A DNA stretch of 64,000 nucleotides from NCBI GenBank assembly GCA_026981935.1, contig JALSIC010000052.1, positions 2,571 through 66,570 on the forward strand, written 5' to 3'. Numbering within the stretch: the first letter of the stretch is position 1; the number at the start of each line of letters is the position of its first letter. The translations under genes were made by a program, and so were the position numbers. Below are positions 3,206-62,153 of the stretch, piece after piece. The DNA comes from Gammaproteobacteria bacterium (GTDB lineage Bacteria; Pseudomonadota; Gammaproteobacteria; SZUA-140). The notes under the pieces are model-generated. The model did not search any database and was not told the origin of the DNA. It worked only from the letters and a program-made list of their open reading frames with translations.

Positions 3206-3206
3206 T

Positions 3207-9848: not shown

Positions 9849-10481
9849 ATGGCGACGATTGCCACTCGGAGGCCAGCGATGGTGTTGTATTCCCGGCCTG
9901 AATGCCCTTTGAGCCACCGCGTACGGATCGTCCTTGCAGAAAAGAACATCGGCGCGGAGATCGTCGACGTGGATCCCGACAATCCGCCCGAGGATCTCAT
10001 CGACCTCAATACCTACGATTCCCTGCCCGTTCTGGTGGATCGTGATCTGGTCCTGTACAACTCCCAGATCATCATGGAATATCTGGACGAACGCTTTCCC
10101 CACCCCCCCCTGATGCCGGTGGATCCGGTCTCGCGGGCCCGTACGCGGATGATGTTGTACCGCATCGACGAGGACTGGTACAGGATTCTCGGCGATATCA
10201 GTGGCGAAGACGAGGCACGCGCTGCCGAGGCACGCAAGACGATCTACGAGGGCCTGATCCTCATGGCGCCCATCCTCGCCAAGAAACCCTTCTTCATGAG
10301 TGATGATTTTGCCCTGGTGGAATGCAGCCTGGCCCCCATCCTCTGGCGGCTGCCTCATTACGGGATCGAACTGCCCCCCCAGGCCAAGGCGGTGAAGCAG
10401 TATGCGCGACGCCTGTTCGAGCGGGAATCGTTTCAGGCCAGCCTCTCGGAGATCGAACGCGAGCTGGGGGCCGGCTGGTGA
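9849..10481 (+). CDS. sspA: Stringent starvation protein A (GST-like)
   Basis: MVLYSRPECPLSHRVRIVLAEKNIGAEIVDVDPDNPPEDLIDLNTYDSLPVLVDRDLVLYNSQIIMEYLDERFPHPPLMP is near-identical in pattern to E. coli SspA. Confidence 0.93.
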   Translation: MATIATRRPAMVLYSRPECPLSHRVRIVLAEKNIGAEIVDVDPDNPPEDLIDLNTYDSLPVLVDRDLVLYNSQIIMEYLDERFPHPPLMPVDPVSRARTRMMLYRIDEDWYRILGDISGEDEARAAEARKTIYEGLILMAPILAKKPFFMSDDFALVECSLAPILWRLPHYGIELPPQAKAVKQYARRLFERESFQASLSEIERELGAGW

Positions 10482-10527
10482 GACAGGCGGCGGGTTTTGC
10501 CGCGGGTTATTGCGGAGGAGAAGCGCC

Positions 10528-10932
10528 ATGGAGATGAGTTCCAGCAGGCCTTACCTGATCCGCGCCATCTACCAGTGGATCAGCGACAACGGCCTGACGC
10601 CCCATATCCTGGTGGATGCCACTGATCCCCGGGTCCAGGTGCCCGCGCGCTATGTGGAGAACGGCCGGATCGTGCTCAACATCAGCGGCCAGGCCACCAG
10701 CGGCCTGCACATCGACAACGACTGGATCATGTTCAAGGCCCGCTTCGGGGGGCAGGAAATGGAAGTCACGGTGCCCGTCGGCGCGGTCCTGGCCATTTAT
10801 GCCCGTGAGAACGGCCGCGGCATGGTACTGGAAAACGCCGATGCTTCGCCCCCGCCCGATGCGCCGCCGCCTTCGCCTCCCCCTGAGCACAAGGGCAAGA
10901 CCAGGCGGCCCTATCTCCAGGTGGTGAAATAA
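10528..10932 (+). CDS. sspB: ClpXP adaptor stringent starvation protein B
   Basis: MEMSSSRPYLIRAIYQWISDNGLTPHILVDATDPRVQVPARYVENGRIVLNIS... with a Pro/Ala-rich tail. It is preceded by GGAGGAG; the internal start is preferred over the track start at 10402. Confidence 0.9.
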   Translation: MEMSSSRPYLIRAIYQWISDNGLTPHILVDATDPRVQVPARYVENGRIVLNISGQATSGLHIDNDWIMFKARFGGQEMEVTVPVGAVLAIYARENGRGMVLENADASPPPDAPPPSPPPEHKGKTRRPYLQVVK

Positions 10933-10949: not shown

Positions 10950-11017
10950 GTCATTTCGAACCGAAGGGAGAAATCCTGTCCCGCTGCCCCGGATTTCTCG
11001 CTGCGCTCGAAATGGCG
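10950..11017. repeat. REP/MITE-like palindromic element, single copy (family also at 43262 and 48001-48403)
   Basis: GTCATTTCGAACCGAAGGGAGAAATCCTGTCCCGCTGCCCCGGATTTCTCGCTGCGCTCGAAATGGCGA. The terminal inverted repeats are GTCATTTCGA / TCGAAATGgC, with an inner inverted pair GAGAAATCC / GGATTTCTC. Confidence 0.8.
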
Positions 11018-34177: not shown

Positions 34178-34231
34178 CCACTGAGGGCAAATCAGACGGG
34201 TGATTCACAAAGGAGAAAAAGGAGGAGCGAG

Positions 34232-35389
34232 ATGTTTGAACTGATGGATTCATACACGCAGAACGCGGTGATCAAGGTGATCGGCATCGGCGGCGGCGGG
34301 GGCAACGCCGTGGAGCACATGGTGGCGGCCAATATCGACGGCGTGGATTTCATCTGCGCCAACACCGATGCCCAGGCGCTCAAGAATTCCTCGGCGCGCA
34401 CCACCCTGCAGCTGGGCTGCAATATCACCAAGGGGCTGGGCGCGGGCGCCAATCCGGACATCGGACGCCAGGCCGCGCTGGAGGACCGGGAACGCATCAT
34501 GGAAGTGCTGGATGGGGCCGACATGGTGTTCATCACCGCCGGCATGGGAGGCGGCACCGGCACCGGCGGCGTGCCCGTGGTGGCCAAGATCGCCAAGGAA
34601 ATGGGCATCCTGACGGTGGCGGTGGTGACCAAGCCTTTTCCCTTCGAGGGCAGGAGGCGCATGGAAATCGCAGAGAACGGGATCAAGGAACTGGGAGAGT
34701 ATGTCGATTCCCTGATCACCATTCCCAACGAGAAGCTGCTGCTGGTGCTGGGCAAGACCATCTCCCTGCTGGATGCCTTCAAGGCCGCCAACAACGTGCT
34801 GCTGGGTGCCGTGCAGGGCATTGCCGAACTCATCACCCGGCCCGGCCTCATCAACGTGGACTTTGCCGATGTGCGCACGGTGATGGCGGAGATGGGGATG
34901 GCCATGATGGGCTCGGGCTCCGAACGGGGCGAGAACCGGGCGCGCGAGGCGGCGGAGGCGGCCATCAACAGTCCCTTGCTGGAGGACGTGGACCTGGCCG
35001 GCGCCCATGGCATCCTGGTGAACATCACCGCCGGCATGGACCTGTCCATCGGCGAGTTCGAGGAAGTGGGCAACACGGTCAAGGAGTTCGCCTCGGACGA
35101 TGCCACCGTCGTGGTGGGGACGGTGATCGACCCCGACATGAGCGACGAGTTGCGGGTGACGGTGGTGGCCACCGGCCTGGGCCGCGAGCGCGCGCCCGAG
35201 CGCGAGAAGCCCATGGAAATCGTGCCCAAGAAGGTGGTGGCCGGCGGTGGCGGCGAGATCGACTATGCGGGACTGGAACGCCCCACGGTGATCCGCAACC
35301 AGAAGGCCGTCGATCCCAACACCCTCCAGGAGGGCACCAATCTGGACTTTCTCGATGTGCCGGCCTTCCTGCGTCGCCAGGCGGATTGA
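34232..35389 (+). CDS. ftsZ: Cell division GTPase FtsZ
   Basis: [17 protein letters not shown]...GGGTGTGG (tubulin signature)...[11 protein letters not shown]. The C-terminal [14 protein letters not shown] is the FtsA/ZipA-binding tail. Confidence 0.97.
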
Positions 35390-35783
35390 GGCGCGGGGCG
35401 GTCTCTTCAGGGTCGGGGAGTGCCGGCCGCTAATTTCAGGGCGTGGCGGATAGCCGGTCCTGCGAAAGGGTCCTGGCGCTTCGGCCCGGATGGCCGCCAG
35501 GGGGTGCGGAAGGCGTGTAACGGCATGAAGATTCAAGATTTTCATGCCGGGGCAGTCGAAGTTATGGATCATCCATGGAGATGTGACGGCATTCCTGGGC
35601 AGCATGGGGGGGCTGTGCTAAGATGCGCGCGGTCTGCGGGCAATGTTGTCCTCGATGCGACGGGCAGGCGGCGGACCGCCACCGCGGGGGGCGGCATGCG
35701 TGCGTGGCGCGTGTGTCCGCATTCCTCACTGGCCTCACAGGGTTTCCTGCTGGGTTCAATACTGGGTTCAATACTGGGCAGGC

Positions 35784-36698
35784 ATGACGAGACAGCGTAC
35801 CTTGAAAAATCCCATCCGGGCGAGAGGCCGCGGCCTGCGCGTGAGGCGCCGGATTCACCTGACCCTGCTGCCGGCGCCTGCGGATACCGGCATCGTGTTC
35901 CGCCGGGTAGACCTGCCGGGCAGGCCCAGGATTCCCGTCTGCCCGGGCAATTTGGATCCGGCCGAGTCCCGTCTGACCCTGAGATCCCCGGCCGCCGGAG
36001 GGAATGCGAGCGTGACGGGGGTGGAACATCTGCTGTCGGCCTTCGCCGGGCTGGGGGTGGACAACGTCTGCATCGAAACCGATGCGCCGGAGCTGCCCGT
36101 CATGGATGGCAGTGCCGGGCCCTTCGTCTTTCTGGTTCAGGCGGCGGGCATCACCGAGCTTGCGGCGGCGAGGCGCTTCATACGCCTGCGCCGGCGGGTG
36201 GAGGTGGCGCTGGGCCGGAGCTGGGTGCGCCTCGAACCCTATGACGGCTTCAAGGCCTCGGTCACCCTGGGCCCGGATCATCCCGGTTGCGAGGGCCAGC
36301 CGCAGGCCGTGAGCATCGATTTTTCCACGGCTTCCTTCATCAAGGAAATCAGCCGGGCACGCAATTTACTCGGCACGGCCCCCGCCGCCCCTGGGGCCGG
36401 CGCGGCTGCCTGCGCCGCAGGGCGGGACGACGATGCGGGAAGCGGCATGCGGCGCGAGACGGCACCCGGGGGTGAGGGGCCGCGTTATCGTGATGAATTC
36501 GTCAAGCACAAGCTGCTGGATGCCATCGGTGATCTCTATCTCCTGGGTCATCCCCTGATGGCGGCCTACAGTGCCTATCAGGCCGGCCACGCCCTCAACA
36601 GGCGTCTGCTGGATACCCTGCAGGCCAATCCCGAGACCTGGGAGAGCGTGATCTTCGATGGGGCCGCGGCGGTGGATCTGCGCCGGGCCGGTTCCTGA
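35784..36698 (+). CDS. lpxC: UDP-3-O-acyl-GlcNAc deacetylase LpxC (with a divergent low-complexity 40-aa segment)
   Basis: MTRQRTLKNPIRARGRGLRVRRRIHLTLLPAPADTGIVFRRVDL...TGVEHLLSAFAGLGVDNVCIETDAPELPVMDGSAGPFVF...EFVKHKLLDAIGDLYLLGH...SGHALN is collinear with the Pseudomonas/E. coli LpxC I recall. The Zn-ligand motifs (HKxxD, E-H) are present. The start at 35784 is preferred over the track start at 35643. Confidence 0.88.
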   Translation: MTRQRTLKNPIRARGRGLRVRRRIHLTLLPAPADTGIVFRRVDLPGRPRIPVCPGNLDPAESRLTLRSPAAGGNASVTGVEHLLSAFAGLGVDNVCIETDAPELPVMDGSAGPFVFLVQAAGITELAAARRFIRLRRRVEVALGRSWVRLEPYDGFKASVTLGPDHPGCEGQPQAVSIDFSTASFIKEISRARNLLGTAPAAPGAGAAACAAGRDDDAGSGMRRETAPGGEGPRYRDEFVKHKLLDAIGDLYLLGHPLMAAYSAYQAGHALNRRLLDTLQANPETWESVIFDGAAAVDLRRAGS

Positions 36699-36708
36699 GG
36701 CGGCCGCC

Positions 36709-37239
36709 TCAGGATGCCGGATTCCGGGATTTTCTGGCCCCGTGGCGTGCAAGCCGCTGCAGCGACTGGCGCAGATCGGGGTCTTCAATACCCTCGGCCA
36801 GCGAGGCGATGAGGGCAGCCGTCCGGGGCGTCATGCGCAGCGGCAACAGGGGCGCGGTGGCCCGGCGGGACGGTGTGTCGGGTCCATGGCAGGCCGGTGC
36901 CTGGGGGGCTGTTTTCACCTGGATGCGCGCCAGGCCGGGCAGTCCTTCCCGGGTCCGCAGGCGTTCCAGGAGCGCAGGCACCTGGTAGCGGAGCAGGGTG
37001 CCCCAGACGGGCGAGTCGGCCTGCAGTACGAGTGCCTGCTCGCGCAGGTTGGCCACCCGGCAGTGATCCCGCAGCGGTGCCGGAAGATGCTTGCGCACCT
37101 TGGCGTCGAGTTGCTTTAATCGCTCGACATGCCGGGCCAGTCGCTGGAGGGGGTCGCTGTCTCCCAGCAGCTGGTGCAAGGGTCTGGCGGTGTGCATGAA
37201 ACTTGCCTGTATAATGTGCCCGACGGGGGCCGGGGACAA
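36709..37239 (-). CDS. DUF721 domain protein (DciA-like family)
   Basis: HCRVANLREQALVLQADSPVWGTLLRYQVPALLERLR fits the DUF721 pattern. Position between lpxC and the M23 peptidase/secA matches the Pseudomonas hypothetical gene there. The start may be the internal Met at ~37197. Confidence 0.5.
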   Translation of the reverse strand: MSPAPVGHIIQASFMHTARPLHQLLGDSDPLQRLARHVERLKQLDAKVRKHLPAPLRDHCRVANLREQALVLQADSPVWGTLLRYQVPALLERLRTREGLPGLARIQVKTAPQAPACHGPDTPSRRATAPLLPLRMTPRTAALIASLAEGIEDPDLRQSLQRLARHGARKSRNPAS

Positions 37240-37373
37240 AGCCCATGAGTTGCGTAGCCCGGATGAAGCGAAGCGGAATCCGGGATGAATTCCTCAGCCA
37301 GGAGACCCGAAAATCGGGTACGCTGCAAAATAACATAATACGAAAGCCGCTGCACTGACACGACGAGCCGGAC

Positions 37374-38294
37374 ATGAACATCATCTTTCTGACCAAGAAC
37401 AGCCGCTCAGCCCGCAGTCTCACCCTGGGACACGGGCGTTCCCTCCTGCTGGTGGGGGCCGTGCTGATCCTGTTGCCTGCCCTGGCCCTGCTGGCGGGCT
37501 ATGGGCTGGGACAGTACCGGGCGGAACGGCAGCTCCTGCCCCGGGAGTGGGCGGCGGAGATGCAGCGCCAGCGCGAGGAGATCCAGCAGCTGGCCAGCAA
37601 GGCCCGGCAGGACATGAACGGCCTGGCGGTGAGGCTGGGGCAGCTTCAGGCCCAGGCAGTGCGCCTCAATGCCCTGGGCCAGCGCCTGGTGGAACTGGGC
37701 AGGCTGGACAAGGACGAGTTCGATTTCACCGCCCTGCCCGCCCAGGGAGGGCCTGCGGCCGCCACCCAGGACGGCCGGCCCATCGAGCCACCGGATTTCC
37801 TGCGTGCCCTGGAGGCGCTGGCTGCCGAACTCAGCGACCGGGAACGCAAACTCCAGGCCATGGAAGCCATTTTCATGAACCGCGGCCTGCAGGAGGAGGT
37901 GCTCCCCGCCGGCCGGCCCATCCGGCGGGGCTGGATTTCCTCGTACTTCGGCATGCGCACCGACCCTTTCACCGGTCTGCGCGAGTTTCACAAGGGTATG
38001 GATTTCGCGGGCAAGCAGGGCAGCGAGGTGATCGCGGTGGCCAGCGGCGTGGTGACCTGGGCTGGTGACCGGTATGGCTACGGCCGGCTGGTGGAAATCA
38101 ATCATGGCAATGGTTATGTGACCCGTTATGGTCACAACAAGGAATTGCGCGTCAAGGTGGGCGACGTGGTGGAAAAGGGCCAGGTGATCGCGCTCATGGG
38201 CAGCAGCGGCCGTTCCACGGGCCCCCATGTCCATTTCGAGGTGCACTACAAGGGCAAGCCCGTCAATCCGGCGCGCTACCTCACCCGCCGCTGA
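37374..38294 (+). CDS. M23-family peptidase (EnvC/NlpD-like murein hydrolase or activator) with N-terminal TM and coiled-coil
   Basis: LytM/M23 C-terminal domain (HKGMDFAGKQGSEVIAVASGVV...GRLVEINHGNGYVTRYGHN...GSSGRSTGPHVHFEVHYKGKPVNP), preceded by a TM and a coiled-coil (QREEIQQLASKARQDMNGLAVRLGQLQAQA). Confidence 0.88.
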   Translation: MNIIFLTKNSRSARSLTLGHGRSLLLVGAVLILLPALALLAGYGLGQYRAERQLLPREWAAEMQRQREEIQQLASKARQDMNGLAVRLGQLQAQAVRLNALGQRLVELGRLDKDEFDFTALPAQGGPAAATQDGRPIEPPDFLRALEALAAELSDRERKLQAMEAIFMNRGLQEEVLPAGRPIRRGWISSYFGMRTDPFTGLREFHKGMDFAGKQGSEVIAVASGVVTWAGDRYGYGRLVEINHGNGYVTRYGHNKELRVKVGDVVEKGQVIALMGSSGRSTGPHVHFEVHYKGKPVNPARYLTRR

Positions 38295-38364
38295 GGGACA
38301 GCCGGGCCTTGGAGGTGCAGGAGGGAGATGCAGGGAGGCATTGGCAATATTCCCCGTCATCCCC

Positions 38365-38412
38365 ATATCCTACATGGCCCATATCTTACATGGCCCCTAT
38401 TTCACATGGCCC
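38365..38412 (+). repeat. 16-bp direct repeat x3 (ATATCCTACATGGCCC / ATATCTTACATGGCCC / CTATTTCACATGGCCC) upstream of secA
   Basis: Three contiguous 16-bp units sharing the core ACATGGCCC, 113 bp upstream of the secA ATG. There is no secM-like ORF between them. Confidence 0.8.
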
Positions 38413-38524
38413 GTGTTCCTGCGGCAGGTTTCCTGCAATCGTGTCCCGCGGTCCTGTCAAGGCAAGCGGGCAGGTATTATAATGGCCTACTTTTATCATC
38501 CCTGATCTGAACAAGACATTCCCG

Positions 38525-41224
<2,700 letters not shown>

Positions 41225-41315
41225 AGAACCCTGTCCTGGCTGATGCTGCGGCCTTGCGCCTCGCTCAGCCTGTCTGCCTGTCCTGCTGTCAGGCCGCCTG
41301 CCCGGCACCGCGCAC

Positions 41316-42548
41316 ATGGCCGTCGGATTGAGTGCGCCTGTCGGGCTGCTGCCGGTGGCAGGAGTACGCCTGGGCGCCACCGCGGCCGGTATCAGAACGG
41401 GTACCGGTAAAGGCGGCGAGGCGGATCTGGCGCTCCTGGAGATCGCGCCGGGCAGCACCGTGGCGGCGGTCTTCACGCGCAATGCCTTCTGCGCGGCACC
41501 CGTGATTCTGGCCCGGCGCCATCTGGCCCGGTGCGCTCCCCGCTATTTTCTGGTCAATGCCGGCAATGCCAACGCGGGCACGGGGGAGGCGGGTCTCGCC
41601 GACGCCCGGGCCTGTTGCGAGGCCGTGGCAACGGCCGCGAACTGTCCCGTCGAGGCCGTCCTGCCATTTTCCACGGGGGTGATCGGCGAGCGCCTGCCGG
41701 TGGATGAGATGAGGGCGGCCATCCCCGGGCTGGTGGCAGGTCTTGCACCCGACGGCTGGGCGCAGGCGGCCCGGGCCATCATGACCACGGATACCGTGCC
41801 CAAGGGGTGCTCGCGCCGCATTACGGTGGACGGGCGGGACGTGACGCTCACCGGCATCGCCAAGGGTTCGGGCATGATCTGTCCCGACATGGCCACCATG
41901 CTGGCTTTCATCGCCACCGACGCCGCGGCGGCCCCCGATTTTCTCCAGCAGTGCCTGCATCGGGCTGTCGCCCGCAGCTTCAACTGCATCACGGTGGACG
42001 GCGACACCTCCACCAACGATGCCTGTGTCCTGGCGGCCACCGGTGCCGGTGAGGCGCCGCCCCTCGATCAGGCTTCTTCATCCGGCGCAGCCGCCTTCGA
42101 GGCCGCGCTGACGGATCTCTGCGTGGCGCTGGCCCAGGCCATCGTGCGCGATGGCGAGGGGGCGACCAGGTTCATCACTGTCGAGGTGTGTGGCGGGCGT
42201 GACGAAGCGGAATGCCGCCAGGTCGCCTACACAGTCGCCCATTCGCCCCTGGTGAAGACCGCCTGCTTCGCCGGGGATCCCAACTGGGGGCGCATCCTCG
42301 CCGCCGTGGGCCGGGCGGGGCTCGAGGGCCTGGAGGTGGGGGGGATCGACATCTTTCTGGATGGGGTCTGCATCGTGCGCGGCGGCGCCCGCGCGCCGGA
42401 ATATACCGAGGCGCAAGGCGTGGCGGCCATGGCCGGCGAGGAGATCCGGATCCGCATCGATCTGGGACGGGGGCAGGCGCAGGGCCAGGTCTGGACCTGC
42501 GACCTGTCTTGTGACTACGTGCGCATCAATGCCGAATACCGGACCTGA
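41316..42548 (+). CDS. argJ: Bifunctional glutamate N-acetyltransferase / ornithine acetyltransferase ArgJ
   Basis: ...[25 protein letters not shown] (autoprocessing ATML site with Thr nucleophile)...; follows secA as in Pseudomonas. Confidence 0.9.
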
Positions 42549-42558
42549 TTCCCCATTG

Positions 42559-42584
42559 AAAAACCCGCCAATGGCGGGTTTTTC
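42559..42584. terminator. Bidirectional rho-independent terminator shared by argJ (+) and rpmG (-)
   Basis: AAAAA-CCCGCC-AAT-GGCGGG-TTTTT: a GC hairpin flanked by an A-run on one side and a T-run on the other, between two convergent genes. Confidence 0.8.
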
Positions 42585-42607
42585 AATGGGGTTGTTGAGG
42601 TCCGGGC

Positions 42608-42763
42608 TTACTTGATCTTGGCTTCCTTGTAGATGACGTGCCTGCGCACCACCGGGTCGTATTTCTTGATCTCCATTTTCTCGGGCATGGTGCGCTTGTT
42701 CTTGTCGGTGGTGTAGAAATGTCCCGTTCCGGCCGTGGAAACCAGCCTGATTTTTTCTCTCAT
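42608..42763 (-). CDS. rpmG: 50S ribosomal protein L33
   Basis: Manual translation of the minus strand gives [51 protein letters not shown] (51 aa). It is below the 60-aa track cut-off. Confidence 0.93.
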
Positions 42764-42773
42764 GACGGCCTCC

Positions 42774-43010
42774 TCACACCTTCTCGCCGCGCTTGCGCAT
42801 GTCGGCGAGGACCTGGTCGATGCCCAGCTTGTCGATGATACGCATGCCCTTGGCGCTGACCCGCAGCCTGACCCAGCGGTTCTCGCTCGCCACCCAGAAG
42901 CGGTGGGTGGAGAGATTGGGCAGAAAACGCCGCCTGGTCTTGTTGTTGGCGTGGGACACGTTGTTGCCCGTCATGGGCCGCTTGCCCGTCACCTGGCATA
43001 CCCTGGACAT
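42774..43010 (-). CDS. rpmB: 50S ribosomal protein L28
   Basis: [33 protein letters not shown]...[30 protein letters not shown] is near-identical to E. coli RpmB. Confidence 0.97.
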
Positions 43011-43261
43011 GGTGAATCCTCCAACTGGAAATCGGCAAAACGCGTTTTATACCAGAACGTGACACCGCTGACAAGGCAGCAGGTCTGAGATCTCATGATT
43101 GAAGGGACGCGATGGGTTGTGGGCATGGAGTAGGCAGCCTGAATGAATATTTACGGGACTGGCAGGGTATCCGGAAAGTCAGCGGCCATCCCTGCCTCCA
43201 TGCTGCCATTTCGATCGCCCATTTTGTCGCTTTGACCCCCTGTGTGCCACGTTACTTTCGT

Positions 43262-43389
43262 GTCATTTCGACCGAAGGAAGGAATCCTGTCCCGCTGCTT
43301 CAAGATTTCTCGCTGCGCTCGAAATGACAGGTGCTGCATCGAAATGACAGGTATTGCATCGAAATGACAAGGTACTGCATTGAAATGGC
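43262..43389. repeat. REP/MITE-like palindromic element (one full copy 43262-43328) followed by three ~20-bp tandem partial units (GCATCGAAATGACAGGTNNT)
   Basis: GTCATTTCGACCGAAGGAAGGAATCCTGTCCCGCTGCTTCAAGATTTCTCGCTGCGCTCGAAATGAC, then AGGTGCTGCATCGAAATGAC / AGGTATTGCATCGAAATGAC / AAGGTACTGCATTGAAATGGC. Same family as 10950 and 48001-48403. Confidence 0.8.
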
Positions 43390-43437
43390 AAAGTATCGAG
43401 GCGCCATGGATCAACTGGATAAGAGGGGCAAGAAGCG

Positions 43438-44067
43438 CTACGGTGAGGCCTTCGTTGAGGCTGGATCGATCTCAGGGTTGTCTGCGGGCAGGCGTTGCCA
43501 GACACGCCGCTTGTTGAGATAGAGCAGAAAGGTGAGCAGCACGAGATAGGCGAGGACATAGCGGCCCAGGCGATGCCGCTCCTCCGCCCGCGGATCGGCC
43601 GCCCAGGCGAGGAACAGGGCCACTTCCCGTGCCGTCCTGTCCACGGCCGCCTGGTTGCCGGGACTGGAGCTGCCCAGGGCATCGGGCATCTTGATGCCGG
43701 GGAAGAGCCGGTTGTCCACGCGGCCTTCCGGCGTGGTGTAGAAACTGGTGAGCAGGGTATAGACGTAGGCCGGCCCGCCTTCCCGCGCCTTGGCGATGAG
43801 AAACAGGCCCAGCCCGTAGAGATCTTTGATGGTGTAGTAGGGATGGAAGGGGATCTGTGCCGATTTCGGCAGGTCGATGCCGGTGGGGTTGCTGCTCTTC
43901 ACGTAGTGCAGGGCGACCAGGTGCATGAAGACCATTGCGAAGATGATGAAAGGGAACAGGAAGTGCAGCACGAAGAAACGGTTCAGGGTGGCATCGCCGA
44001 TGGCGTAGTCGCCACGCAGCCACAGCACCACCTCGTCGCCGATGAAGGGGGTGGCGCATTCTCTCAC
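43438..44067 (-). pseudogene. Remnant in-frame fusion of a cytochrome b fragment (central region) with a cytochrome c1 fragment (C-terminal region); bc1-complex gene debris
   Basis: The N-terminal 90 aa (DATLNRFFVLHFLFPFIIFAMVFMHLVALHYVKSSNPTGIDLPKSAQIPFHPYYTIKDLYGL) match the bH/bL second-His-pair region of cytochrome b. The rest (IAKAREGGPAYVYTLLTSFYTTPEGRVDNRLFPGIKMPDA...VALFLAWAADPRAEERHRLGRYVLAYLVLLTFLLYLNKRRVW) matches the cytochrome c1 C-terminus including the TM anchor. The cyt b N-terminal third, the c1 CXXCH haem site and any Rieske gene are absent. The ORF starts exactly at the radC stop. Confidence 0.75.
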
Positions 44068-44738
44068 AGCAGGCCGCGGCTGGCGAGGGAAACCGTTTCG
44101 CCGTCGCCGATGATGAGGTGATCCAGGACGCGGATGTCCACCAGGGCCAGGGCATCGCGCAGGCGCCGGGTCAGGGCCAGGTCCGCCTGACTGGGCTCCG
44201 CCACGCCGGATGGATGGTTGTGCGCCAGGATCACCGCCGCGGCATTGGCCGCCAGCGCCTCTTTGACCACTTCCCGGGGATGGACGCTGGCGCCGTTGAT
44301 GGTGCCGCGAAAGAGTTCGTTGAAGGACAGCACCTGGTGACGGTTGTCCAGGAACAGGCAGCCGAAGACCTCGTAGGGGCGGTGGCGCAGAAGCGCGGTG
44401 AGATAGGCGGCGCTCTCGCCGGGATCGCGCAGGGGCTGGCCGCGCTGCAGGGTTTCGGCCAGGTGGCGCCGGCTCATTTCCAGCACGGCCTGAAGGAGCG
44501 CATACTTGGCCTTTCCCAGGCCGGGGCTGCGGCAGAAACGGGCCTGTTCCGCCTCCAGCAAGGGGCGCAGGCCGCCGAATTCGTGCAACAGCTCCCGGGC
44601 CAGGTCCACGGCGGTGCGGCCCCGGCAGCCGGTGCGCAGGAAGATGGCCAGCAGTTCGGCATCGGAGAGCGCGGCAGGACCGCGCGCCAGGAGTTTCTCC
44701 CGCGGACGTTCCGCCGCGGGCCAGTCGGTGATGGGCAT
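44064..44738 (-). CDS. radC: RadC-family JAB/MPN-domain protein
   Basis: [11 protein letters not shown]...[12 protein letters not shown]...[41 protein letters not shown]. The start at MPITDW is preferred over the track start at 44876. Confidence 0.9.
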
Positions 44739-44833
44739 GGTGACCTCCTTGTCAGGGCCGGCGCGGTCTCTGCCTTGCGCCGGCGTGGTATATTGCCCGT
44801 TTCGCGGGGCAGGTGAGGCCATTGTGCAGGGTG

Positions 44834-46096
44834 ATGAAAGACGAAGCAAACGAAGCAGACGAAGCAAACGAAGCAAACAGGGAGCGCCTGAGGGGCAAGC
44901 GCATCCTGCTCGGGGTCACGGGGAGCATCGCCGCCTACAAGAGCGCCGAGCTGGTGCGCCTGCTGCGCGCCGCCGGCGCCGAGGTGCAGGTGGTGTTGAG
45001 TCGTGGCGGCTCGGCCTTCATCACGCCGCTCACCTTGCAGGCGCTTTCGGGCAGGCCCGTGCGACACCAGCACCTGGATCCCGACAGCGAGGCGGCCATG
45101 GGACACATCGAGCTGGCGCGCTGGGCCGATGTCGTCCTGGTGGCGCCGGCCAGCGCCGATTTCCTCGCCCGCCTGGCCCAGGGCCGGGCGGACGACCTGC
45201 TGGCGGCCGTGTGCCTGGCCAGCGAGTCCCCCCTCGCGGTGGCGCCCGCCATGAACCGCCAGATGTGGGAGCAGCCCGCCACCCGGGAGAATCTGGCGTG
45301 CCTTGCGGCACGCGGCGTGAGCGTGTTCGGGCCGGAGAGCGGCGAACAGGCCTGCGGCGAGGTGGGGGAGGGACGCATGCGCGAGCCCGCGATGCTGGCG
45401 GCGGATCTGGCGGGCCTGTTCGAAAGCGGTGTCCTGCAGGGAGTGCGGGTGCTGGTGAACGCCGGCCCTACCCGCGAGCCCCTGGATCCGGTGCGTTTTC
45501 TCTCCAACCGCAGCTCCGGCAGGATGGGCTATGCCCTGGCCCGCGCGGCGCAGGAGGCCGGCGCCGCCGTGACCCTGGTGTCGGGGCCGGTGGCGCTCAG
45601 TCCCCCGGAACGGGTCGTCTGCCAGCGCGTGGAGACGGCGGAAGAGATGCGCGCCGCGGTGCTGGACGCCGCCGGTGTCGCGGATCTGTTCATCGCCGCC
45701 GCGGCCGTGGCCGATTACCGGCCGCGCCAGGTCGCAGGTGACAAGCTCAAGAAGTCGTCGCCGCGGCTGACCCTGGAACTGGAGCGCACGCCGGACATCC
45801 TGGCGGAAGTGGCTGCCCTGGCGGCCCCGCCCTTTACCGTGGGTTTTGCCGCCGAGACCACGAATGTGGAACACTATGCGCGCGCCAAGCTTGCGGCCAA
45901 GGGTCTCGATCTCATCGTCGCCAACCAGGTGGGCGGAACGCAGGGCGGGTTCGAAGCGCAGGACAATGCGGTGACGGTCTATTGGCCGGGTGGCGCGAAG
46001 TCCTTTCCGCTGATGGCCAAGGACAAGCTGGCGCGGCTTCTGGTGACATTGATCGCAGAGAGATACCATGCAAAAAATCCAGCTCAAGATTCTTGA
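44834..46096 (+). CDS. coaBC: Bifunctional phosphopantothenoylcysteine decarboxylase / phosphopantothenate-cysteine ligase CoaBC, with an N-terminal (E-A-N/D) repeat encoded by a 9-bp tandem repeat
   Basis: [36 protein letters not shown]...[36 protein letters not shown]...[27 protein letters not shown] is collinear with E. coli Dfp. The N-terminus [15 protein letters not shown] is encoded by ACGAAGCAA x4 (44841-44876). Confidence 0.9.
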
Positions 46097-46523
46097 TCCC
46101 CGGCTGGGCCGGGAGCTGCCCCTGCCCCGCTATGCCACCGACGGGGCCGCCGGCATGGACCTGCGGGCCTGTCTGGACGGGCCCCTGGTGCTCGCTCCCG
46201 GTGAGTCGGCACTCATTCCCACGGGACTGGCCATCCACATCGCCGATCCCGGGCTGGCGGCGGTGATCCTGCCCCGCTCGGGCCTGGGGCACAAGCACGG
46301 CATCGTCCTGGGCAACCTGGTGGGCCTGATCGATTCGGATTACCAGGGCCAGGTCCTCGTCTCCTGCTGGAACCGGGGCGAGGCCCCCTTTACCATTGAG
46401 GTGGGCGAGCGCATCGCGCAGATGGTGTTCGTGCCGGTGGTGCAGGCGGATTTCGAGATCGTCGAGGAATTCGCGGCCAGCCGGCGCGGCGCCGGGGGAT
46501 TCGGCCACACCGGCCGTCATTGA
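46068..46523 (+). CDS. dut: dUTP diphosphatase
   Basis: [16 protein letters not shown]...[27 protein letters not shown]... shows the canonical dUTPase motifs. Overlaps the coaBC end. Confidence 0.95.
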
Positions 46524-46579
46524 GTCTTGCCGATCCGGGTTGCGCGTTTGACGTTTCCGAAAAAGAGAAGGAGTGCACC

Positions 46580-47968
46580 GTGAATTCCCAGCTGCCGGAC
46601 ATCCCGTCGTCCATCTTCAAGGCCTACGACATTCGTGGCATCGTGGGCGAGACCCTCACCCCGGATATCGTCCGGTGCATCGGCCAGGCCATCGGGAGTG
46701 TCGCCGCGGCGCGTGGTCAGGCCGCGGTGGCCGTGGCGCGCGACGGGCGCCTGTCGGGTCCCGAGTTCGTCGCCGCGCTCGGCGACGGACTGCAGGCCGC
46801 CGGCCGCCGGGTCATCGATCTGGGCAGGGTGCCCACGCCGGTGCTCTATTTCGCCACGCACGAGCTGGACACCCGCTCCGGTGTCATGGTGACGGGCAGC
46901 CACAACCCGCCGGCGTACAACGGCTTCAAGATCGTGGTGGACGGCGAGACACTCTCCGGCGAGGCCATCCAGGACCTGCGGCGCCGGATCCTGGCGTCCG
47001 ACTACGTCACGGGGCAGGGCAGCCACGAGACCGAGGAGATCCTGCCCCGTTATCTTGCGCGCATCACGGGTGACGTGCGGCTGGCCAGGCCCCTCAAGGT
47101 GGTGGTGGACTGTGGCAACGGCGTCGCCGGCGCGGCAGCGCCCGCCCTGCTGCGCCGGCTGGGCTGCGAGGTCAGCGAGCTGTTCTGCACCGTGGACGGC
47201 CATTTTCCCAACCACCACCCCGACCCCAGCCAGACGGAGAATCTCGCCGACCTCATCGATGCAGTACGAAGGGAGGGTGCCGATGTGGGCCTGGCCTTCG
47301 ACGGCGATGGCGACCGCCTCGGCGTGGTGGATGCCACGGGGCGCATCATCTGGCCGGACCGCCAGATGATGCTCTATGCCGCCGACATTCTCTCCCGGCA
47401 TCCCGGGGCGGAGATCATCTACGACGTGAAATGTTCCCGCCACCTGGGCCGGGTGATCGAGGAGCACGGCGGCCGGCCGCTCATGTGGCGTACCGGCCAT
47501 TCCCTCATCAAGGCCAAGATGCGGGAAGACGGCGCCCTGCTGGCCGGCGAGATGAGCGGCCACATCTTCTTCAAGGAGCGCTGGTACGGTTTCGACGACG
47601 CCCTGTATGCGGCGGCGCGCCTGCTGGAGATTCTCGCCCGGGAAGCGCGTCCGCCCGCCGCGGTGTTCGCGGATCTGCCCGACGCCGTATCCACGCCGGA
47701 GCTGCGGGTGGAGATGGCCGAGGGGGAGCATTTCCGCTTCATGGAGCGCTTCGCCGCGGCGGCGCATTTTCCCGGTGCGCGGCTTTCCACCATCGACGGC
47801 ATCCGCGCCGATTTCGCTGACGGCTGGGGCCTGATCCGGCCCTCCAATACCACGCCCTGCCTCATCATCCGCTTCGAGGCCGACGACGAAGCCGCCCTGG
47901 CGCGCATCCAGACCTTGTTTCGCAAGGCCATCCTGGCCCTCGAGCCCGGCCTGCAATTGCCTTTCTGA
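46580..47968 (+). CDS. algC: Phosphomannomutase / phosphoglucomutase (AlgC-type)
   Basis: IFKAYDIRGIVGETLTPDIV...GVMVTGSHNPPAYNGFKIV (active-site Ser)...DGDGDRLGVVD...GEMSGHIFF is collinear with P. aeruginosa AlgC. GTG start at 46580, 8 nt after AGAAGGAG, giving MNSQLPDIPSSIF. The track start at 46520 would add ~20 unlikely residues overlapping dut. Confidence 0.9.
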   Translation: MNSQLPDIPSSIFKAYDIRGIVGETLTPDIVRCIGQAIGSVAAARGQAAVAVARDGRLSGPEFVAALGDGLQAAGRRVIDLGRVPTPVLYFATHELDTRSGVMVTGSHNPPAYNGFKIVVDGETLSGEAIQDLRRRILASDYVTGQGSHETEEILPRYLARITGDVRLARPLKVVVDCGNGVAGAAAPALLRRLGCEVSELFCTVDGHFPNHHPDPSQTENLADLIDAVRREGADVGLAFDGDGDRLGVVDATGRIIWPDRQMMLYAADILSRHPGAEIIYDVKCSRHLGRVIEEHGGRPLMWRTGHSLIKAKMREDGALLAGEMSGHIFFKERWYGFDDALYAAARLLEILAREARPPAAVFADLPDAVSTPELRVEMAEGEHFRFMERFAAAAHFPGARLSTIDGIRADFADGWGLIRPSNTTPCLIIRFEADDEAALARIQTLFRKAILALEPGLQLPF

Positions 47969-48000
47969 GGTCCCCGCCAGCGCCTCGGCCATAGTGCCTT

Positions 48001-48403
48001 GTCATTGCGGCCGAACCTCCCTCTCATTTCGACCTCACTCCCTTGTCATTTCGACCGCAGGGAGAAATCCTGTGCCGGTGACCCAAGATTCCTCGCTGCG
48101 CTCGGAATGACAAAAAAGGGGGAATGACAAAGAAGTGTCATTTCGCCCGCAGGGAGAAATCCTGTGCCGGTGACCCAAGATTCCTCGCTGCACTCGGAAT
48201 GACAAAAAAGATGGAAAGAATTGTCATTTCGACCGAAGGAAGAAATCCTGCCCACCGTCCCAGGATTCCTCGCTGCGCTCGGAATGACAAAAAAGATGGA
48301 AAGAATTGTCATTTCGACCGAAGGGAGAAATCCTGCCCACCGTCCCAGGATTCCTCGCTGCGCTCGGAATGACAGGGATACTGTCATTCCTCGCTGCGCT
48401 CGT
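48001..48403. repeat. Tandem array of REP/MITE-like palindromic elements: 4 full ~67-bp copies (48044-48110, 48136-48202, 48222-48289, 48308-48374) plus partial copies at each end, separated by near-identical 19-25-bp A-rich linkers
   Basis: Unit: GTCATTTCGACCG(A/C)AGGGAGAAATCCTG - 12 nt - (CC)AGGATTCCTCGCTGCGCTCGGAATGAC. The arms form an imperfect ~28-bp inverted repeat. Copies 1/2 are nearly identical to each other, as are copies 3/4; the linkers are AAAAAAGATGGAAAGAATT. Period 86-92 bp. Confidence 0.85.
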
Positions 48404-49349
48404 CAGTGTCCCCCGGGGCGCGATAGGCGCCCCGCACCTTCATGATCTCCTTGGGCCAGCGGCGCTTGGTGCATTGCCACTGTCCGGGACGGGCGCGGAT
48501 GAGGTCGGCGATGGCCCGGTTCATGGCGGCGGTGATTTCCTCGAGGCTCTTGTGCGCCTCCCCCGGGGCGTGGACGGCCGGGTGGATGACACTGCGAAAG
48601 CGCGCGTCTCCCAGGCGCTCGGTGTGCACGGGGACGATGGCGCAGTCGAATCTGCGCGCCAGCCAGGCGGGCAGCGGGGTGGTCGCGGCCGGCGCCCCGG
48701 CGAAGGGGACGGAGAGGCCGTCGTCGATGCGCACGTCCACGTGCAGGCCCACGGAGCGGCCCTGCTTCAGGCTGGCAATGAGGCGCCTCAGGGCGTTTTC
48801 CTTGGGGATGAGCGTTTGTCCCAGTGCCGTTCTCCGGGCCGCGACCAGCCGTTCCAGGCCGGGATTGACCTGCGGGTTGTAGACCAGGTCCACAGGATAA
48901 CCCAGGGAATGGATGGCATAGCCGGAGAGTTCCCAGTTGCCCAGGTGGGGCGCCACGAAGACACAGGGCCGTTTGCGGGCCAGGAAATCGGGATCCCGGT
49001 TTTCGCACACGACCTCCAGGGAGGCGAACTCACAGTCGGGATCGATGATGGCGGCGAAGTGGGGGAATTCCGCCAGCGAGGCGCCCAGGTTGCCCCAGAC
49101 GGCGCGGGCCAGGGCGGTGATTTCGGCTTCGTCCCTCTCCGGACACAGCATGCGCAGATTGGCCAGCACGTGGCGGTGCTTGCGGCTGCGGGGGCCGAGG
49201 GTTTCCAGCAGCCGGCGCCCGAAACGGGAGGCGCGCGCCGGGGACAGGCGGCCGGAAAGCCACCAGAAGGCCTTGAGCAGCATGACCTGTTGCCGCCACG
49301 ACCAGGGCGGGCGCGCCGGGGGGGCGTGTTGCCTGGTTTTCCCGTCCAC
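48384..49349 (-). CDS. Lipid A biosynthesis acyltransferase, LpxL/LpxM (HtrB/MsbB) family, paralog 1
   Basis: ...RHVLANLRMLCPERDEAEITALARAVWGNLGASLAEFPHF...CVFVAPHLGNWELSG...VDLVYNPQVNPGLERLV...GRSVGLHVDVR...RPGQWQCTKRRWPKE. GTG start at 49349, chosen by alignment with paralog 2; the track start at 49610 overlaps paralog 2. The last 5 codons and the stop lie in a REP-element arm. Confidence 0.8.
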   Translation of the reverse strand: MDGKTRQHAPPARPPWSWRQQVMLLKAFWWLSGRLSPARASRFGRRLLETLGPRSRKHRHVLANLRMLCPERDEAEITALARAVWGNLGASLAEFPHFAAIIDPDCEFASLEVVCENRDPDFLARKRPCVFVAPHLGNWELSGYAIHSLGYPVDLVYNPQVNPGLERLVAARRTALGQTLIPKENALRRLIASLKQGRSVGLHVDVRIDDGLSVPFAGAPAATTPLPAWLARRFDCAIVPVHTERLGDARFRSVIHPAVHAPGEAHKSLEEITAAMNRAIADLIRARPGQWQCTKRRWPKEIMKVRGAYRAPGDTDERSEE

Positions 49350-49354
49350 GTCGT

Positions 49355-51467
<2,113 letters not shown>

Positions 51468-51516
51468 TGCGCATCACCCCGGCCGCATCTTCCGCCGTAT
51501 GCCGGGCTGCCCAGTT

Positions 51517-51557
51517 GAGCTGGTGGTGAGCTGGTGGTGAGCTGGGGGTGAGCTGAG
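51517..51557 (+). repeat. 11-bp tandem repeat (GAGCTGGTGGT x3, then GAGCTGGGGGT, then a partial unit) ending 3 nt before the tauE/safE-like start codon
   Basis: GAGCTGGTGGTGAGCTGGTGGTGAGCTGGGGGTGAGCTGAG; contiguous and intergenic. Confidence 0.85.
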
Positions 51558-51559
51558 TC

Positions 51560-52327
51560 TTGGATGATCAGGACTACTGGTTGGACCAGCTGCTGCTGTT
51601 CTTCATCTCTCTGCTGGCCAATGTCTTTTCCGCCTTCTCAGGGGGCGGTGCCGGGCTGATCCAGCTGCCGGCCCTGATCCTGCTGGGGCTGCCTTTCGCC
51701 CTGGCGCTGGCCACCCACAAGGTGGCCTCCGTGGCCCTGGGCGTGGGCGCGACCCTGCGTTATCTCAAGTCGGATGTCCTGGAGCGCCGCTTTGCGCTGT
51801 TCATTCTCGCCTGTGGCCTGCCCGGCGTCGTGCTGGGTGCGAGTCTCATTCTGCAGGTGCCGGGACGGGCGGCGGAAGTGGCCCTGGGGCTGCTCACCAT
51901 GGGGCTGGGCGTGTACTCATGGCGGCGCCGGGAACTGGGCCAGGAATACCGCCCGGCGCGGCGCGACCGACGCGGTTTCGCGACGGGCGGCGCGGTGCTG
52001 TTCGTCATCGGCGTGCTCAACGGCTCCCTCACCTCCGGAACCGGCCTGTTCGTCACCCTCTGGCTGGTGGGCTGGTTCGGCCTGGATTACAAGCGGGCCG
52101 TGGCCTATACCCTCATCCTGGTGGGATTGTTCTGGAACGGCAGCGGCGCCGTCACCCTGGGCGTGCAGGGCGGCATCCAGTGGGACTGGCTGCCCGCCCT
52201 GCTGCTGGGCTCGGTGCTGGGCGGCTACATGGGTGCCCATCTCGCCATCGTCAAGGGCAGCCGCCTCATCAAGCGGGCCTTCGAGCTGGTGACCGTGCTG
52301 GTGGGGTTGAAACTGATTCTGGGGTGA
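51560..52327 (+). CDS. TauE/SafE (DUF81) family membrane exporter
   Basis: 255 aa, 7-8 TM with internal duplication (GGGAGLIQLPALILLGLPFALALATHKVASVALGVGA... / ...TGLFVTLWLVGWFGLDYKRAVAYTLILVGLF). Confidence 0.8.
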   Translation: MDDQDYWLDQLLLFFISLLANVFSAFSGGGAGLIQLPALILLGLPFALALATHKVASVALGVGATLRYLKSDVLERRFALFILACGLPGVVLGASLILQVPGRAAEVALGLLTMGLGVYSWRRRELGQEYRPARRDRRGFATGGAVLFVIGVLNGSLTSGTGLFVTLWLVGWFGLDYKRAVAYTLILVGLFWNGSGAVTLGVQGGIQWDWLPALLLGSVLGGYMGAHLAIVKGSRLIKRAFELVTVLVGLKLILG

Positions 52328-52332: not shown

Positions 52333-52358
52333 GCCGAGTTACGCTCGGCAATTTGTTT
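52333..52358 (+). terminator. Rho-independent terminator after the tauE/safE-like gene
   Basis: GCCGAG-TTACG-CTCGGC followed by AATTTGTTTGG. Confidence 0.6.
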
Positions 52359-52400
52359 GGCTGCAAACCGGTGATCCCGCGCATCACTACTGTGCACCCG

Positions 52401-53072
52401 CTATCCATCATCCCCCGATACCGCGCCGTAGCGCGCCTGGTAGGCGCGCACCTTTTCCAGATGCGCGGCCAGGTCCGGTTTTTCCTCCAGATAGTGGATC
52501 AGCGTATCCAGGCCGGCGATGCTCACCACGGGCACACCGAAGGCTTCCTCGATTTCCTGGACGGCGGATCGCGTGCCGGTACCCCGTTCCTGGCGGTCCA
52601 GCGAGATGGCGACCCCTGCCAGGCAGGCGCCCGCGGTCTCGATGAGGGCGGCGGATTCGCGTACCGAGGTACCGGCGGAAATCACATCGTCGATCACCAG
52701 CACCCGGCCTTGCAGCGGCGCGCCCACGATGATGCCGCCCTCGCCGTGGCGCTTGGCTTCCTTGCGGTTGAAGGCATAGGGCAGATTGCGGCCGTGATGC
52801 TCCTGCAGGGCGATGGCGGCGGCCACTGCCAGAGGGATGCCCTTGTAGGCGGGACCGAAAAGCATGTCGAATTGCAGGCCGGCCTTTTTCTCCGCCTCCA
52901 CGATGGCGGCGGCATAGTAACGGCCCAGCAGGGCCGCGGCGCGTCCGTCGTTGAAGCGGCCGCTGTTGAAGAAATAAGGGCTGACCCGCCCCGACTTGAG
53001 TGTGAACTCGCCGAAGCGCAGCACCTCGTATGCCAGGGCGAGATCCAGGAATTCGCGCTGATAGTCTTTCAT
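52401..53072 (-). CDS. pyrE: Orotate phosphoribosyltransferase
   Basis: [38 protein letters not shown]...[13 protein letters not shown] (PRPP-binding motif) is collinear with E. coli PyrE. Confidence 0.95.
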
Positions 53073-53153
53073 GATTCCTTCCAGGCCATGGGAGAAGGCC
53101 GCATTGTAACGGGCAGGACGTTTCGGCGGAACCGGGTCGATGATAAGCAGCCC

Positions 53154-54065
53154 TCAACGCTCTGTCCTCTGTCCTCTGTCCTCTGTCCTCTGTTCCACCA
53201 GCCCCAGCAGATATTGCCCGTAGCCGTTGTTCTGCATGGGCTCGGCGAGGCGACGGACCTGGGCCGCATCGATGTAGCCCATGCGATAGGCGATTTCTTC
53301 GGGGCAGGCGATCTTGAGCCCCTGGCGTTGTTCGATGATCTCGATGAAGGCGGCGGCCTGTTGCAGGGACTCGTGGGTGCCGGTGTCCAGCCAGGCCGTG
53401 CCGCGGCCCATGCGTTCGACGCGGAGCTGGCCTCGCGCCAGGTAGGCGAGGTTGACGTCCGTGATTTCCAGCTCGCCGCGTGCCGAAGGCGTGAGGCGGC
53501 GGGCGATGTCCACGACCTGGTTGTCATAGAAATAGAGTCCCGTGACGGCGTAATGGGAGCGGGGCCTGGCCGGTTTTTCCTCCAGGCCCACGGCCTGGCC
53601 CGCGGCATCGAATTCCACCACGCCGTAGCGTTCCGGGTTCTTGACGTAATAGCCGAATATGGTCGCCCCTTTTTCGTGTGCCGCCGCGGCCTGCAGGCTG
53701 CGAGCCAGTCCGTGGCCATAGAAGATGTTGTCCCCCAGCACCAGGGTGACGGGGTCCGGGCCGATGAAGTCGGCACCGATGAGAAAGGCTTCGGCCAGGC
53801 CGTTGGGCCGGGGTTGCGGGGCATAGTGAAACGCCAGTCCCCACTGCCTGCCATCGCCCAGCAGCTCGCGAAAGCGCGGCAGGTCCTGGGGCGTGGAGAT
53901 GACGAGAATATCGCGGATGCCCGCCAGCATGAGCGTGGAGAGGGGGTAATAGATCATGGGCTTGTCGTACACCGGCAGGAGCTGCTTGCTCAGCACCCGG
54001 GTGAGGGGGTAGAGGCGGGTGCCCGAGCCCCCGGCCAGGATGATGCCCTTGCGCGTGGCGCTCAT
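53154..54065 (-). CDS. rfbA: Glucose-1-phosphate thymidylyltransferase RmlA/RfbA (C-terminal tail encoded by a 7-bp tandem repeat)
   Basis: [56 protein letters not shown]... The C-terminal ...[13 protein letters not shown] is encoded on the minus strand by GGACAGA units (CTCTGTC on the plus strand). Confidence 0.93.
53159..53188. repeat. 7-bp tandem repeat (CTCTGTC on plus / GGACAGA on minus, >=3-4 units then CTCTGTT) inside the 3' end of rfbA
   Basis: The read sequence is GCTCTGTCCTCTGTCCTCTGTCCTCTGTTCC. My manual count (3 full units) and the frame implied by the ORF-track translation (4 units) differ by one unit, so the copy number should be recounted computationally. Confidence 0.7.
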
Positions 54066-55177: not shown

Positions 55178-55402
55178 GGATCGGGAGAGGGCGTGGATTC
55201 TTCAGGAAGGGGCGATACCGTCCCATAGTCTCTGCGCCTGATCGTTCCCTGGATAGGGTCTGAAATCTGTCCTGGGTTGCCAGGGGGCATATGGACGCCC
55301 GTGAGATATTGGAGAAGAATCCAGCCATTTTGCAATTTCCAGGAAGAAACGATATCATCACCGGTTCTTTGCTGCAATCCAAGCCTACAGAGAGTCAGAT
55401 TT

Positions 55403-60022: not shown

Positions 60023-60099
<77 letters not shown>

Positions 60100-60158
60100 T
60101 CTTGCTGATCTATTGTTTCCTGCATCCCCTGATCAATCCTGTCCACAAGGCGCGGGGA

Positions 60159-60434
60159 ATGGCCATGCCTGTCGGATCCTGCGGTGAGGTGGTATCGCTC
60201 ACGGACCTCAAGACCAATCCGGGCCGGGTGGTGAAACACACCGCCGAGACCCACCGGCCCGTGCTGGTCACCCGCCGCGGGCGGGGCGTGGCCGTGGTGC
60301 AGTCGGTAACGGAATTCGAGACCGCCGAGGAGGAGCGCGCCTTCATGCGCGCCGTGGTGGTGGGCCTGGCCGATCTGGATGCGGGACGCGAAGTCAGTCT
60401 GGCGGAGGCCCGGGCACGGCTCGGCCTGAAATAG
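60159..60434 (+). CDS. Phd/YefM-type antitoxin (apparently orphan: no cognate toxin downstream)
   Basis: VVSLTDLKTNPGRVVKHTAETHRPVLVTRRGRGVAVVQSVTEFETAEEE fits the Phd/YefM N-terminal fold pattern. The start at MAMPVGS (ATG 60159) is preferred over the track start at 60066. Only 73 bp follow before the convergent YgiT-type gene. Confidence 0.5.
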   Translation: MAMPVGSCGEVVSLTDLKTNPGRVVKHTAETHRPVLVTRRGRGVAVVQSVTEFETAEEERAFMRAVVVGLADLDAGREVSLAEARARLGLK

Positions 60435-60507
60435 CCCTGTGCCGACCCCGCCGTCACATAAGGTGGGTAGCGCCGGCCGCCCCAAGTTGAGGTCACAAAA
60501 TGTGATC

Positions 60508-62149: not shown

Positions 62150-62153
62150 GTCC

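Follow-up and report, generated by a model that had tools for sequence, protein, structure and literature searches.

Proteobacterial petABC (fbcFBC) is the closest described system to the locus discussed here. A functional operon of this type includes a Rieske gene (petA), a gene for an eight-helix cytochrome b with the histidine pairs of helices B and D and the PEWY motif (petB), and a gene for a cytochrome c1 with a signal peptide and a CXXCH motif (petC). The variant of concern encodes a short (~230 aa) monohaem c1, which is also found in Gallionellaceae, Ferriphaselus, and uncultured Gammaproteobacteria. Natural full-length fusions of cytochrome b and cytochrome c1 are known as well, namely those of the Bradyrhizobium FbcH type. 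A third point of reference is the spontaneous deletion between short direct repeats, known from the classical deletion spectrum of Escherichia coli lacI and explained by RecA-independent slippage.

The window, i.e., the whole stretch of 64,000 nucleotides analysed here, carries between rpmB and radC a minus-strand ORF of 209 aa with a GTG start, in which a middle part of cytochrome b is joined in frame to the C-terminal part of cytochrome c1. This ORF, referred to as the remnant, is very probably a young, non-functional leftover of the petABC operon of its clade, cut down in place by two deletions between short direct repeats. Its halves are orthologous pieces of petB and petC at the same radC–rpmB position as the operon of the relatives, whereas petA, PetB residues 1–157 and 245–406, and PetC residues 1–111 are missing. 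The coordinates of the features are collected in Table 1. The main comparison is with a sister species represented by the NCBI contig JBPMAG010000021.1 (L001), which was reached through its complete 231-aa PetC (P0002).

Table 1. Features of the remnant, its flanks, and the sspAB region in the window.
Feature	Position	Strand	Basis
petB'-'petC remnant, 209-aa fusion ORF	43438..44067	-	ORF listing, Pfam, structures, L001 alignment
petB-derived segment, 264 bp, 94.3% identical to L001 9253-9516	43794..44057	-	L001 alignment
petC-derived segment including stop codon	43438..43800	-	Pfam, structures, c1 alignment
Junction 1, single kept copy of the 8-bp direct repeat GCGCCACC	44050..44057	-	L001 alignment
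Junction 2, single kept copy of the 7-bp direct repeat CTCATCG	43794..43800	-	L001 alignment
radC, 224 aa, intact; TGA overlaps the remnant GTG	44064..44738	-	ORF listing
rpmB (L28), conserved neighbour downstream of petC in the clade	42774..43010	-	ORF listing, relatives
rpmG (L33)	42608..42763	-	ORF listing, L001
REP-like palindromic element, petC–rpmB spacer	43256..43328	.	REP search, L001 comparison
20-bp tandem repeat, 3.4 copies, TCGAAATGACAGGTACTGCA	43319..43387	.	repeat search
REP-like core 3' of sspB, ~90% identical to the 43304 copy	10992..11016	+	REP search
sspA (9849-10481) and sspB (10528-10932)	9849..10932	+	gene identification

The composition of the remnant can be read residue by residue. 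Codons 1–4 derive from the spacer between radC and petA, as seen in the alignment to L001, amino acids 5–92 correspond to PetB residues ~158–244, and amino acids 93–209 correspond to PetC residues ~112–231. Pfam profiles match above their curated cut-offs, specifically Cytochrome_B at amino acids 5–55 (E 6e-15), Cytochrom_B_N_2 at amino acids 5–91 (E 7e-14), and Cytochrom_C1 at amino acids 88–192, covering profile positions 102–218/219 (E 6e-22). In comparisons with solved structures, amino acids 5–91 align to cytochrome b residues ~152–238 with a best E of 1e-25, and amino acids 88–194 align to cytochrome c1 residues ~113–231 with an E of 3e-12. These matches are far beyond chance, and they answer the question, raised in an earlier note on this DNA, of whether a computed alignment would find any similarity to cytochrome b and c1. 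The c1 part is 98% identical at the protein level to the PetC of L001, and the b part differs from the PetB of L001 at 2 of 87 residues.

Judged by the solved structures, the cytochrome b part spans the cd loop, helix D with two haem-ligand histidines, the de loop with the motif PFHPYYTIKD, and the start of helix E; all but the first of these elements were also assigned to the petB-derived segment itself. The petC-derived segment retains the axial-methionine motif KMPD, the motif FLAWAADP, and the C-terminal membrane anchor, as established by alignment with 13 c1 homologues. In the same alignment, the c1 signal peptide and the CXXCH motif (CVSCH in L001) are missing from the remnant. According to Pfam, structures, and alignments, the remnant also contains neither the cytochrome b N-terminus nor the haem histidines of helix B nor the PEWY motif of the Qo site. 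A Rieske gene with the cluster motifs CTHLGC and CPCHGS was not found between radC and the remnant ORF, the intact petA genes of two relatives (L084 and L086) serving as comparison. The set of parts that makes up a functional petABC is thus not present, and the remnant product cannot form a bc1 complex, because it offers only one of the two histidine helices and no Qo site, Rieske protein, c1 signal peptide, or CXXCH. Of the cofactor sites that bc1 chemistry requires, it would have no more than half of the b-haem ligands. The earlier note had described the ORF as an in-frame cytochrome b/c1 fusion and as debris of a bc1 operon that lacks precisely the cytochrome b N-terminus, the CXXCH of c1, and the Rieske gene; the ORF listing, Pfam, the solved structures, the c1 alignment, and the operons of relatives at the same site all agree with this description.

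The order of the domains, cytochrome b followed by c1 in one frame, is shared with the FbcH-type fusions. However, both domains are complete in those proteins, which are 570–731 aa long, whereas the remnant has 209 aa, skips ~270 residues between its b and c1 parts relative to the long natural fusions, and matches them in separate stretches. Natural fusions matched in this way among 1.84 billion representatives are P0232 (686 aa), P0243 (731 aa), P0254 (570 aa), and P0317 (612 aa), and full-length b-c1 fusions of 570–731 aa are the only proteins matched in more than one stretch (two or three). The earlier note had considered that the ORF might align over its full length to a known fused family, of which it is not a member. 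In searches of 5.8 billion clustered proteins, 1.84 billion representatives, and 80 metagenome loci, the only full-length match to the remnant was the remnant itself. Two metagenome loci that appeared to span both parts, L110 and L117, were rejected, as they are normal petABC operons, and all petB and petC matches of the protein-based metagenome scan were ordinary genes, separate from each other. A protein of 636 aa from a Gammaproteobacteria MAG (P0421) is 74% identical to the PetB of L001 and has both cytochrome b and cytochrome c1 complete within a single ORF, so this bc1 subfamily, too, includes natural full-length fusions.

The neighbourhood of the remnant reveals the native site of the operon. 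The gene order in L001 is coaBC, radC, petA', petB (406 aa), petC (231 aa), rpmB, rpmG, argJ, and secA, and the order coaBC-radC-petA-petB-petC-rpmB-rpmG-argJ-secA is common to all clade relatives (L001 and L083–L087). In L086 and L087, which represent a fourth species beside those of the window, L001, and L083–L085, the operon between radC and rpmB is fully intact, with a petA of 183 aa, a petB of 410 aa, and a petC of 231 aa. In the more distant metagenome contigs L091 and L144, petABC is likewise located directly upstream of rpmB-rpmG. Because the clade relatives and the distant contigs keep this order, petABC is native to the radC–rpmB site and nothing was inserted there. The proposal of the earlier note that a fragment had been inserted between rpmB and radC is accordingly not borne out; compared with L001, the operon at its native position has suffered two internal deletions. 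Outside the clade, the nearest petB genes are 68–73% identical (Chromatiaceae MAG, Gallionella, and Ferrovaceae; the best in the genome-contig scan reached 73%), and neither radC/rpmB nor sspAB adjoins them. A further contig from Logan, L172, stops inside radC, short of junction 1. A tandem repeat with a 9-bp unit, ACGAAGCAA, occupies 44841-44878 in the divergent region between radC and coaBC, where the coaBC ORF has its 5' end. The window has 4.2 copies of the unit and L001 fewer, so that relatives differ in copy number.

The earlier note had proposed the alignment with a close relative as a way of reconstructing the rearrangement, and L001 is the relative compared here. It is collinear with the window over ~19 kb (window ~33430-52285) at 93–94% nucleotide identity, and the alignment contains only two large gaps, both within the pet operon. 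These gaps correspond to clean deletions of 1075 bp and 824 bp in the window, each located between short direct repeats of which one copy is kept. The 8-bp repeat GCGCCACC is found in L001 at 8178, 14 nt past the radC stop, and at 9253, in petB codons 157–159. The 1075 bp between these copies that are missing from the window contain the pet promoter region, the whole of petA, and petB codons 1–157. The 7-bp repeat CTCATCG is found in L001 at 9510, in petB codons 243–245, and at 10334, from petC codon 112 onward, its copies sitting within an imperfect repeat with 14 of 17 positions identical. Here, the missing 824 bp contain petB codons 245–406 and petC codons 1–111. In the 2.3 kb of L001 between 8100 and 10400, each repeat motif occurs exactly twice, namely at the deletion end points. 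The petB and petC pieces are joined in phase because the two lie in different frames and 824 equals 2 modulo 3; the prior for such an in-frame outcome of the second deletion is about 1 in 3.

These junctions are of the kind known from lacI, as the intact allele has the same flanking repeat of 7–8 bp and exactly one copy is left after the deletion. There is no difference in kind, except that two events have taken place in one operon and that the second happened to be in phase. Three signs by which a pseudogene formed by deletion between short direct repeats is recognised are found, namely an intact orthologue at the same position in relatives, a flanking repeat with one copy kept, and a second assembly with the same allele. 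In the proposed course of events, a first deletion between the GCGCCACC copies would have taken the spacer from 14 nt past the radC stop together with petA and the 5' part of petB, and a second deletion between the CTCATCG copies would have taken the rest of petB and the 5' part of petC, joining the two frames by chance. Replication slippage or illegitimate recombination between the direct repeats would account for both steps; we infer this mechanism as well as the order of the two deletions. The long ORF would then be a by-product of the deletions, and the remnant is probably without function or expression. The event is ordinary in kind and provides a new instance of a pseudogene formed at short direct repeats.

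As the window is a metagenome contig, the reading has to be considered that the true genome contains an intact petABC which was collapsed in the assembly or during library preparation. A second assembly is available for comparison, since the 60-kb contig k141_464805 (L170) of ENA ERZ27262642 carries the identical 630-bp ORF between radC and rpmB. It is 99.94% identical to the window, and its 11 mismatches and 1 gap in 20,675 bp all lie outside the two junctions, which are identical. Repeats of 7–8 bp are far shorter than any assembler k-mer and cannot mislead an assembler working at k=141; the allele is therefore regarded as real and not as an assembly artefact. An artefact would also require two separate collapses within 2.5 kb. 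In its favour, a contig of the same species from GCA_054019195.1 (L169), 99.25% identical over 19.5 kb, ends exactly at window position 43800, which points to an ambiguity in the assembly graph. Taken together, a collapsed intact operon is hardly credible. The two assemblies with the remnant allele may derive from related samples.

The end of L169 is informative in another respect. Position 43800 is the end of the junction-2 repeat and the last base that deleted and undeleted sequences have in common, which suggests that the contig ends at a branch of the assembly graph and that both continuations were present in that sample. This in turn suggests that deleted and undeleted alleles, or sister species, co-occur there. 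As a hint only, drawn from this one contig end, the deletion may still be segregating in the species of the window. A homologue search found no intact PetB of this species, and the L001 PetB is alone in its 90%-identity cluster.

The second assembly also bears on a separate region of the window. Crude ORF picking yields two long ORFs of 589 and 387 aa at 52353-55228 without a Pfam match. In the gene calls of L170 and L171, a contig 99.94% identical to the window, the opposite strand of this region encodes genes with Pribosyltran, NTP_transferase, and epimerase domains, and the two ORFs are probably a wrong ORF choice.

A different origin of the remnant had been suggested in the earlier note, in which REP-mediated recombination split an ancestral petABC-sspAB block and left a fragment between rpmB and radC. 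Similar REP-like copies are indeed present 3' of sspB (10992) and 3' of the remnant (43304), and sspAB is preceded by unrelated genes as stated, namely a DjlA-like TerB+DnaJ gene, a DUF302 gene, a c-type cytochrome gene, and the P-II and DabA genes, without petABC. The adjacency of petABC and sspAB is real in other Gamma- and Betaproteobacteria, where it was found in 9 of 80 genome loci, including Methylophaga, Thiobacillus, and Thiodiazotropha. However, it is not the arrangement of this clade, being seen neither in the window's clade nor in its closest petB relatives, and with petABC at the radC–rpmB site in all clade relatives, one of them with a fully intact operon, the break-up of an ancestral block finds no footing. 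The REP-like element starts ~110 bp after the stop codon of the remnant and is located outside both junctions, which lie in coding sequence at 7–8 bp repeats and not at REPs; a REP-mediated break-up is not supported here. In L001 two copies of the element follow the intact petC, while it is absent from the petC–rpmB spacer of L084 and L086; it predates the deletions. A REP-mediated origin is consequently the least probable of the readings discussed, close to dismissal, and sspAB plays no part in the deletion events.

The REP-like core itself is not limited to these two places. Matches are located at 10992-11016 and 43304-43328, and eight more occur at 48045-48373, with 0 expected in shuffled sequences. 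The eight matches form four head-to-head pairs in one intergenic region. Beside the remnant, the 20-bp tandem repeat seems to have developed from the REP-like element's right arm. Rfam assigned no RNA family to the spacer between rpmB and the remnant.

Further features lie elsewhere in the window. The genes upstream of sspAB include, at 1508-7410, a DAB-type module for inorganic-carbon uptake, consisting of a dabB-like gene with a Proton_antipo_M domain, a 252-aa ORF without a Pfam match, dabA, and a gene for a P-II protein. The third-position GC of this module is clearly below that of the rest of the window, and the module may have been acquired horizontally. Its genes hint at a putative autotrophic lifestyle. 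Towards the other end, at 60023-63985, a tRNA gene (60023-60096) is followed by a 247-aa ORF with the N-terminal domain of HsdM only, an ORF with a RAMA domain, and a MazE-like ORF, an arrangement that looks like an integrated island with another truncated gene.

The age of the deletions can be estimated from the substitutions that separate the window from L001. The petB piece shows 13 synonymous and 2 non-synonymous changes (dN/dS 0.042), and the petC piece 14 synonymous and 3 non-synonymous changes (dN/dS 0.071). Between the same two sequences, dN/dS is 0.03 for secA, 0.056 for ftsZ, and 0.096 for radC. As the values of the pet pieces resemble those of these genes, almost all of the divergence predates the inactivation, which makes the deletions recent. 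This comparison takes the 93–94% identical sister species as a stand-in for the ancestor of the window lineage, and a low dN/dS of the fragment would also be expected if the fragment were still under selection.

Continued selection would be expected if the fusion were a functional new gene, i.e., a small membrane protein composed of helix D of cytochrome b and the C-terminal domain and anchor of c1, produced in coupling with radC. Its role might be to modulate another bc1 complex or to join it as a dominant-negative partner. No stop codon interrupts the frame between the radC stop and the native petC stop, and, as the earlier note had seen, the ORF begins on the stop codon of radC, the GTG at 44067-44065 overlapping the TGA at 44066-44064. 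This GTGA overlap could permit translational coupling to radC, by which a small membrane protein could be made. Nevertheless, the in-frame join has a prior of about 1 in 3, as given above, the GTG is merely the first in-frame start after the upstream stop, and in L001 the same GTG opens a meaningless ORF of 68 codons. The few non-synonymous changes since the split from L001 and a GC3 of 0.83, typical of coding sequence, would fit a functional gene, but low dN/dS and high GC3 are also what a fragment inherits from recently functional parent genes. Furthermore, a haem c site, the second histidine pair, a signal peptide, and an evident Shine-Dalgarno sequence are all absent from the remnant, and no homologue of the same architecture was found among the 1.84 billion representatives. 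A promoter scan of 42500-45100 found no sigma-70-like promoter, the native pet promoter region falls inside the first deletion, and a terminator scan placed the terminator-like sites near the remnant at chance level. We consider a functional new gene very unlikely.

The remaining relatives show that the pet operon has been damaged more than once. In L001, petA (8254-8783) is destroyed, as ~260 bp of antisense IS256/Mutator transposase sequence, from the 5' end of that gene (PF00872, E 6e-7), take the place of codons ~70–165. What is left of petA is codons 1–69, which encode the TAT-signal/TM part, and the final 14 codons; the cluster motifs of the Rieske protein have been lost, whereas petB and petC are undamaged. 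This structure is taken from a single assembly. The replaced Rieske domain of L001 raises the possibility that an IS256-family element had first entered petA in the lineage of the window as well and that its later excision, or a deletion adjacent to it, took petA and the 5' part of petB. In the window, however, no IS256 or other IS sequence is left, and junction 1 is a clean join at an 8-bp direct repeat. That petB and petC have a low dN/dS in the comparison of the two species also speaks against an ancestral knockout of petA. An IS-mediated first deletion is therefore regarded as unlikely, and simple deletion between the GCGCCACC copies is retained as the explanation of junction 1.

A third lesion affects L083–L085. 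In these contigs, a deletion of 1 nt in the PFYAILR codons of petB (~9635) splits the gene into ORFs of 301 and 111 aa, and the frame reads through cleanly when one base is restored. The three assemblies or strains are 99.7–99.8% identical, with 15–41 differences in 15–20 kb. As the frameshift is common to three assemblies that differ from each other, it is real and fixed in this species. In comparisons across species, dN/dS amounts to 0.12–0.16 for petB, 0.27–0.31 for petC, and 0.25 for petA. The values of argJ and coaBC are at least as high, which indicates that in every lineage the operon was still working, under purifying selection, until a short time ago.

The remnant and the pseudogenes of the sister species, i.e., the petA::IS256 fragment of L001 and the petB frameshift of L083–L085, thus share the locus, the operon, and a recent age. 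Their molecular lesions differ, and they are independent for this reason. Three independent recent lesions suggest that, in this sub-clade, selection on complex III has been relaxed or reversed. Whether the remnant can be seen as a snapshot of a parallel, ongoing loss of bc1 in a small clade of uncultured Gammaproteobacteria is a more tentative matter; we regard this as possible, though somewhat less probable than its opposite.

The remnant alone matters little. It illustrates that two deletions at short repeats can yield a plausible chimeric ORF, which gene callers annotate as a cytochrome b + c1 protein; a pseudogene flag would be the proper annotation. Provided that the lesions are real, it is only recently that complex III became unnecessary for this lineage or a disadvantage to it. 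Another quinol:cytochrome c oxidoreductase may have taken its place, or the niche may have changed. If the genomes of this clade contained no second bc1 and no alternative complex III, the clade would represent a natural case of respiratory-chain remodelling in progress.
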